From Escherichia phage PSK8, in the sequence record PP541515.1: DNA of 44,592 nt, one strand, 5' to 3'. The position numbers and the translations under genes are program-made. The notes below the pieces were generated by a model. It had not been told where the DNA came from and did not search any database. It saw nothing but the letters and a program-made list of their open reading frames with translations. Shown piece by piece: positions 24,520-24,974 of this stretch. Numbering within the stretch: position 1 is the first letter of the stretch; each line of letters starts with the position of its first letter.

Positions 24520-24541
24520 ATTTGTGACAGGTATCACATAA
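24520..24541. promoter_or_regulatory. CRP-like site (ATTTGTGACAGGTATCACATAA: TGTGA-N6-TCACA)
   Basis: Both half-sites match the CRP consensus; centred about 72 nt upstream of predicted start of the promoter at 24568. Confidence 0.35.
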
Positions 24542-24567
24542 ATAATCTATCTTAGTGAAACTTAGTG

Positions 24568-24596
24568 TTGACACAGGCAATCAACAGGTATACATT
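24568..24596 (+). promoter_or_regulatory. Host sigma70-type early promoter (TTGACA-17-TACATT)
   Basis: Perfect -35, 17-nt spacer, TACATT -10; same architecture recurs at 25469. Confidence 0.5.
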
Positions 24597-24974
24597 AGCA
24601 ATCACTGAGACGGACTAGCAAGCTGCCTCAGGTTATAAGCAGGAGAATTGATGCGTAAGCCATAGCTAGTGGATGTAGTCGCATGAAGGCTTGAGTAAGG
24701 GGCCGTTTAATACCTTCTTCCTCTGGAGACAAAGCTTATAACAAGGTCGCTGTTCGGCTTCCACGGCAGCAGTTCTGGAGGGAACTACATCCCAACAAGG
24801 AGTTAACCACTCCGCACTAGTGCCACCGTGGTGGATAACATGATGTGCAACGGTTGCCTGCTGAGGGGCTATAGCTCACGAGTTAGGTTAACAGGCTAAC
24901 ACCGCTCTTTAACAATTTGCTTAGTGTAACCTATGTATGCCGTGGTTAGTTACTTATTGAATGAGGAATTAACT

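Follow-up and report, generated by a model that had tools for sequence, protein, structure and literature searches.

The early promoters of phages of the T7 supergroup are usually treated as constitutive and very strong, serving genome pull-in and the synthesis of the phage RNA polymerase. In T7, the strong rightward host promoters A1, A2 and A3 are clustered 500-750 bp from the leading end and are followed by the sequence GCTCTTTAACAA (which we take to be the rrn-type boxA antitermination consensus), the early genes and the phage RNA polymerase. A very strong promoter with boxA-bearing transcripts is also found at rrnB P1, where the bending activator Fis occupies site I at -71. [quoted passage not shown]

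At class I promoters of Escherichia coli, such as lac P1 (CRP site at -61.5) and the constructs CC(-71.5), CC(-72.5) and lac*, a 22-bp TGTGA-N6-TCACA site lies upstream of a sigma-70 promoter. In this class the site is centred near -61.5, -71.5/-72.5, -82.5 or -92.5, where CRP and RNA polymerase share a face of the helix, and activation depends on AR1 of CRP and on alpha-CTD. Zhou et al. found that activation was highest at -71.5 and -82.5, whereas at -75.5 CRP was turned to the wrong side of the helix (PMC4132738). Forcier et al. list CRP-polymerase cooperativities of 105 at -71.5, 83 at -72.5, 1.27 at -76.5 and 0.99 at -66.5 (PMC6301791, Table 1). Among published examples, the nearest to CRP control of a "lytic" phage is T1: host CRP acts directly on promoters (pir, dam, recE) of this phage, which has traditionally been counted as lytic, and so links its development to the carbon state (PMC6737242). 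T1 belongs to an unrelated family, and its promoters are repressed by CRP, which feeds a lysis-lysogeny-like switch via the phage regulator Pir (PMC6737242).

Here we analyze a palindrome upstream of the first early promoter of Escherichia phage PSK8. It is very probably a real CRP-binding sequence and is co-inherited with that promoter at a class I-like distance. It has the 22-bp layout of the class I promoters, but it is a site predicted from sequence and is carried by a virulent phage genome instead of a catabolic operon. In contrast to T1, its geometry predicts activation, and the promoter concerned is the first of the early promoters in a phage of the T7 supergroup. Compared with rrnB P1, the protein is different and the signal is opposite, since Fis is high in rapid growth and cAMP-CRP is high on poor carbon.

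Position of the palindrome in the PSK8 genome

The window, meaning the whole stretch of 44,592 nucleotides analyzed (PP541515.1), was assembled in circularly permuted form and represents a Vectrevirus of the SP6/K1E group in the T7 supergroup. Its nearest records are 87-91% identical over 24000-25000. Alignment to the experimentally mapped ends of K1E, SP6 and UAB_Phi78 placed the physical left end at about 23884-23901. Thus, the palindrome lies about 630-650 bp inside the leading genome end. Two host-type promoters, P1 and P2, are about 700-720 bp and 1.6 kb from the physical end, respectively. The palindrome region is non-coding and precedes small early ORFs and the RNA polymerase ORF. The first and last 127 bases of the window (1-127 and 44466-44592) match perfectly. 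They are an overlap left by circular assembly; the biological terminal repeat lies elsewhere, near 23884-24180. The main features are as follows.

24520..24541, no strand assigned: CRP-type site of 22 bp, ATTTGTGACAGGTATCACATAA, with the core TGTGA-N6-TCACA at 24523-24538 and the dyad centre at 24530.5
24539..24567, + strand: linker between the site and the -35 hexamer, 29 bp, with CTTAGTG at 24551 and 24561, the second copy abutting the -35 hexamer
24568..24596, + strand: P1, host sigma-70 type promoter, with TTGACA at 24568-24573, a 17-bp spacer, TACATT at 24591-24596 and the predicted start at 24603-24604
24904..24915, + strand: GCTCTTTAACAA in the P1 leader, exact match, about 300 nt past the predicted P1 start
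25469..25497, + strand: P2, second host-type promoter, TTGACA-17-TACATT
25533-25544, + strand: second copy of GCTCTTTAACAA, downstream of P2
27157-29784: RNA polymerase ORF, 875 aa, downstream of the small early ORFs
29792..29815, + strand: intrinsic terminator-like hairpin directly after the RNA polymerase ORF

The order of plus-strand sigma-70 promoters near the leading end, small ORFs, polymerase ORF and terminator is that of a T7-supergroup early region, and host transcription of the early unit probably ends at the hairpin at 29792-29815. A family of phage-type promoters, ATTTAC[TC]GGACACTATAGAAG (at least nine copies), has its first member just past this terminator, at 29872. T7 and PSK8 differ in promoter arrangement: in place of the three clustered promoters, PSK8 has the single P1 with its CRP site in the leading ~800 bp, and P2 about 900 bp further in. 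A palindromic hairpin, (T)GTCTCACATGTGAGAC(A), was also noted in seven copies (10989, 29853, 30046, 30846, 32414, 33812 and 39039), at least three of which (29853, 30046 and 39039) are immediately upstream of phage-type promoters.

The palindrome scores among the best CRP sites

The sequence-only reading had described both CRP half-sites, TGTGA-N6-TCACA, upstream of a TTGACA-17-TACATT promoter. Both elements are present, the core being exact at 24523-24538 and the promoter lying at 24568-24596. The core, TGTGACAGGTATCACA, is the sole exact TGTGA-N6-TCACA on either strand of the 44.6-kb window. In shuffled sequences, 0.07 exact cores are expected per genome, and 7 of 100 shuffles contained at least one. 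When one mismatch was tolerated, the core at 24523 was still the only match in the window, compared with 1.98 expected.

Matrix scoring, proposed in the sequence-only reading as a check, agreed with the motif. A symmetrised weight matrix was built from 124 16-mers, the highest-scoring rows of a CRP ChIP-seq data set of E. coli 042 (Table S2, PMC12360894). The phage site scored 15.13 bits of a maximum of 20.06, the ChIP-site median being 10.3. Only 13 of the 124 ChIP-seq sites scored as high or higher, which puts the phage site near the 90th percentile of the sites bound in E. coli. It is the top score in the window, followed by 11.26 bits at 11634. The versions carried by relatives score 14.2-17.4 bits. 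An equally good site occurred somewhere in 8.3% of random genomes (first-order Markov), so the score alone is not decisive and it is the location that makes the site notable. In the rest of the genome, CRP-like sites were somewhat rarer than simulated at or above the ChIP median (2 versus 5.3), and also rarer at or above the ChIP 25th percentile (35 versus 48.9).

The palindrome could instead be the operator of another dimeric protein of early phage or host origin, a vestigial phage-polymerase promoter, or a hairpin. A perfect 5-bp inverted repeat beside a promoter is typical of many operators, T7 phiOL lies about 90 bp upstream of A1, and the left half-site has GTGACA in common with the core of SP6-type promoters. 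On the other hand, the match to the 10-base CRP core is exact and the score falls in the top tenth of bound CRP sites. FNR sites have the form TTGAT-N4-ATCAA; the palindrome agrees with this at 7 of 10 positions and has the CRP-type GTGA signature. We consider this group of explanations most improbable. Two of its members were ruled out: the ATTTAC[TC]GGACACTATAGAAG family has no member near 24520, where a phiOL-like promoter would lie, and the predicted hairpin is weak (-2.8 kcal/mol, z=-1.2). Two-fold symmetry, half-sites separated by N6 and a score in the range of sites bound in vivo, by which CRP sites are recognized, are all found in the palindrome. cAMP-CRP very probably binds this DNA.

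The spacing to P1 is close to a class I distance

P1 matches the sigma-70 consensus at 10 of 12 positions, with 4 of 6 in the -10 hexamer. Only P1 and P2 (25469) reach 10/12 in 23000-31000. P1 had been called the first host-type promoter, and it is indeed the first plus-strand match past the left end, save for a weak 9/12 match overlapping the palindrome. P1 has the same hexamer layout as T7 A3 (TTGACA, 17-bp spacer, TAC..T), and its TACATT-AGCAATC-A is laid out as in T7 A1 and A3. A start at the A of 24604, 8 nt past the -10 hexamer as annotated for T7 A1 and A3, centres the site at -73.5; a start at 24603, 7 nt past it, gives -72.5. Our search of the literature on Vectrevirus found no start-site mapping.

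The proposed geometry of about -72 was correct (-72.5 or -73.5, about seven turns of the helix), and the distance from the centre to the -35 hexamer proved to be 1-2 bp above the measured optimum. The dyad centre and the first base of the -35 hexamer are 37.5 bp apart, versus 35.5-36.5 bp in the constructs of peak activity (PMC4132738; lac P1 reconstruction in this study). The phage site thus overshoots the optimum by 1-2 bp in the upstream direction, with 3 bp left before the dead phase, activation being lost by -75.5/-76.5. Compared with the lac position, it lies one turn further out and faces about the same side of the helix. This spacing is compatible with class I activation, which is probably not maximal here. 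No obvious A-tract UP-like sequence was seen at the expected alpha-CTD position. The sub-optimal core of class I promoters is not found in P1, which has a near-consensus core (consensus -35, 17-bp spacer, 10/12).

CRP might also bind without being a class I activator. It could occlude an overlapping element, put a bend into the DNA end as it enters, or damp P1 because it lies slightly out of phase. One promoter-like element overlaps the site:

24524-24553, + strand: weak promoter-like element GTGACA-18-TATCTT, 9/12 match, overlapping the left half-site

CRP represses when it covers -35/-10 elements, for example at EAEC 0536 and kpsM P2 (PMC12360894), cAMP-CRP represses the T1 promoters named above (PMC6737242), and the phage spacing is past the activation optimum. 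However, the overlapping element is weak, such matches being no commoner here than in shuffles, and no minus-strand promoter-like site is nearby. Moreover, the cooperativity measured at -72.5 is strongly positive (PMC6301791). A non-activating role of bound CRP is in our view distinctly unlikely. A leftward promoter served by the palindrome was ruled out, as 23000-31000 contains no minus-strand promoter-like match.

The sequence-only reading had also stated that a tie to host cAMP/carbon status is not a described feature of T7-like early promoters. In line with this, the best matrix hit at T7 A1-A3 was 7.1 bits, and we found no publication to the contrary. Nor did we find a description of a CRP site in SP6-like early regions, which Dobbins 2004 or Scholl 2004 may mention.

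The palindrome is co-inherited with P1 in one of two promoter cassettes

Related phages carry one of two cassettes behind a common stretch:

24445..24511, + strand: stretch common to module-1 and module-2 relatives, the cassettes diverging just after it, at about 24512-24516 (alignment and BLAST)

BLAST alignments to module-2 genomes stop at query position 72-77. Module 1, consisting of the palindrome and P1, was present in 42 phage records, including K1E, SP6, CrRp3, ACG-C91, VEc3 and LL11. Module 2 has another TTGACA promoter, about 45 bp nearer the genome end (e.g., UTI89UKE2, AAPEc6, BP12B and UAB_Phi78), and the matrix scan detected no CRP-like site at the first promoters of module-2 genomes. 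At least 50 related genomes carry this CRP-site-free promoter in place of the module-1 cassette. Both alleles occur in both genera, Vectrevirus and Zindervirus. An IMG/VR and metagenome search with the promoter as anchor gave three true homologues; the other ~70 loci were rejected as chance 17-mer matches.

The exact core was kept in 23 of 24 distinct module-1 sequences (window included), from phages of E. coli, Salmonella and Citrobacter. Variable columns among the 24 module-1 genomes were distributed as follows.

CRP half-sites: 1 of 10
N6 spacer: 3 of 6
5' flank: 6 of 11
Site-to-(-35) linker: 6 of 29, no gaps
-35 and -10 hexamers: 0 of 12
Promoter spacer: 15 of 17

Since the linker has no indels in any relative, the spacing between the site and the -35 hexamer is fixed. 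The half-sites were more constrained than the adjacent flank and spacer (Fisher p=0.03); compared with all neighbouring columns the difference was not significant (p=0.15), about 18 bp downstream being equally conserved. Half-sites and hexamers together differed from all other columns with Fisher p=0.0002. The module-1 genomes are close relatives, and the columns are therefore not independent samples. The cassette (24445-24660) is about 93% identical to K1E/SP6, versus 80-82% in the adjacent left-end DNA, and the palindrome stays with the -35 hexamer despite at least three different leaders downstream. The elevated identity and the linkage across leaders favour constraint on the cassette. In addition, the presence of at least three unrelated leaders past the -35 hexamer in module 1 indicates recombination breakpoints at the promoter.

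These data bear on the possibility that the palindrome is a neutral passenger, which arose by chance or for a reason since lost, persists in a conserved cassette, and may bind CRP without consequence. Simulated sequences also contain a score at least as high (8.3% of genomes) or an exact core (7 of 100 shuffles), as above, and module-2 phages thrive without the site. The carriers are 90-98% identical over the cassette, so that 23 of 24 does not amount to 23 independent observations, and the downstream neighbours are as conserved as the half-sites (p=0.15). Against a passenger, the sole strong site in 44.6 kb sits in the ~700-bp non-coding leading end near a class I position, the variation falls in spacer and flank and not in the half-sites, and CRP-like sites are rarer than expected elsewhere in the genome. 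We regard a passenger as rather unlikely.

Two relatives deviate at the cassette. T205P4 (Vectrevirus) has TGCGA at the position equivalent to 24525 and is the sole relative with an altered half-site; TGCGA is the core described for Sxy-dependent CRP-S sites (PMC1635313). In mutPK1A2, a 2-bp insertion (TTGACACAGAGGCAATC...) lengthens the P1 spacer to 19 bp, which should weaken P1 as judged from the sequence; the CRP core is exact.

The same architecture occurs in unrelated viral contigs

IMG/VR was scanned for an exact CRP core upstream of TTGACA-N16-18-TAnnnT, yielding at least about 80 sequence families. Several unrelated uncultured viral families among the matches listed have invariant half-sites and variable N6 spacers. 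One family of at least 10 contigs has the same 29-bp gap as the window; it gave no megablast match to cultured phages, and its only PHROGs match, a 2OG-Fe(II) oxygenase, is uninformative on the host. In another family among the matches listed, the gaps are 37 or 27 bp, one helical turn apart. With one count per family (at least about 80), helical phasing gave R=0.24, compared with 0.229 for the 99th percentile of the null. Among the matches listed, the phasing peaks are at about -64, -75 and -86, 2-3 bp off the E. coli optima. At the level of sequence, the scan shows that the combination of CRP core and promoter is not peculiar to SP6-like phages; for the PSK8 site this is plausibility support only.

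Expected effect on early transcription

The best reading is a class I boost of P1, probably with a modest effect. In full, we propose that a genuine high-affinity cAMP-CRP site is inherited with P1 and gives it a modest, condition-dependent class I boost, and we rate this proposal at about an even chance. At high cAMP, a CRP dimer would occupy the site at about -72.5/-73.5, on roughly the same side of the helix as the polymerase, and would contact alpha-CTD, leading to faster polymerase capture at P1. The sequence, its score, its geometry and its joint conservation with P1 are shown here; CRP binding, the alpha-CTD contact, an influence on transcription and a connection with entry of the genome are inferred. 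Since P1 is already strong, the expected effect is a boost of this kind and not an on/off switch. It would count most when free polymerase is scarce, as on poor carbon sources and in slow growth, and, by analogy with T7, also as long as no promoter other than P1 has entered the cell. The start of infection could thereby be mildly coupled to the host nutrient state.

Several results suggest that any effect of cAMP status on early transcription is small. P2 is equally strong and has no CRP-like site, the best matrix score within 120 bp upstream being 4.4 bits, and module-2 phages lack the site. A consensus -35 hexamer releases a promoter from CRP dependence and was avoided in constructs by Zhou et al. 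for this reason (PMC4132738). In the thermodynamic model of Forcier et al., stronger polymerase binding moves fold-activation towards 1 (PMC6301791). The P1 core is near-consensus and not weak, which makes strong CRP dependence unlikely. A paper on an RB-TnSeq screen in Salmonella names crp and cyaA as hits for Chi, FelixO1 and Aji_GE, and the hits that its text reports for SP6 are O-antigen and LPS genes, with crp and cyaA not among them (PMC8744999). Because the screen selects for host survival in rich medium, a modest kinetic effect would escape it. The CRP site is probably not essential, and its regulatory importance, as far as it can be predicted, is probably modest.

A stronger version, which we find very doubtful, is that CRP occupancy gates transcription-driven internalisation of the genome, with module 2 as a cAMP-blind allele kept by host physiology, and that this is a general phage strategy. 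Occupancy would set the speed at which host RNA polymerase engages at P1; as the ~700-850 bp that would enter unaided, by analogy with T7, contain no host promoter other than P1, CRP would gate internalisation. Infection efficiency would then depend on the carbon state of the host, different host physiologies would maintain the two-cassette polymorphism in both genera, and the phased CRP-type palindromes in unrelated uncultured phage families would represent an unrecognised general strategy.

Under the modest class I boost, a conserved top-decile CRP site before the first early promoter, SP6 included, could allow a virulent phage to sense host nutrition as soon as its genes begin to be expressed. 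Since many of the phages with the site are candidates for therapy against K1 and other encapsulated E. coli, their efficacy in gut or urine could be affected by a dependence on carbon source or cAMP. Repression of the kps capsule promoter by CRP has also been reported for one E. coli pathotype (PMC12360894). The two natural alleles are ready-made controls. If the effect is nil, the locus would be a clean example of a strong CRP site without a regulatory role.

Leader of P1

GCTCTTTAACAA was found downstream of the first host promoter in 16 of 16 relatives checked, with both cassette types, and is expected 0.15 times per genome at up to one mismatch. It is present in T7 as well (nt 813, between A3 and gene 0.3). 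Early transcripts across the group may therefore be subject to Nus-factor antitermination. Folding of the P1 leader (24603-24980) revealed no unusual structure (z=-0.2), and a search of 23500-25500 against Rfam gave no match at E<=1. Ahead of the ORF starting at 24933, the plus strand of the ~330-nt leader lacks any ORF of at least 30 codons. The leader contains a four-codon mini-ORF at 24640-24665, ATG CGT AAG CCA TAG (MRKP), with a well-spaced AGGAG upstream. Finally, the hexamer CTTAGT is strongly enriched at the leading end (23682-24920): 17 of 26 plus-strand copies lie within 2 kb, versus 0 of 20 minus-strand copies, and seven are clustered at 24264-24335, 10-13 bp apart. In both cassette types, CTTAGTG directly abuts the -35 hexamer.
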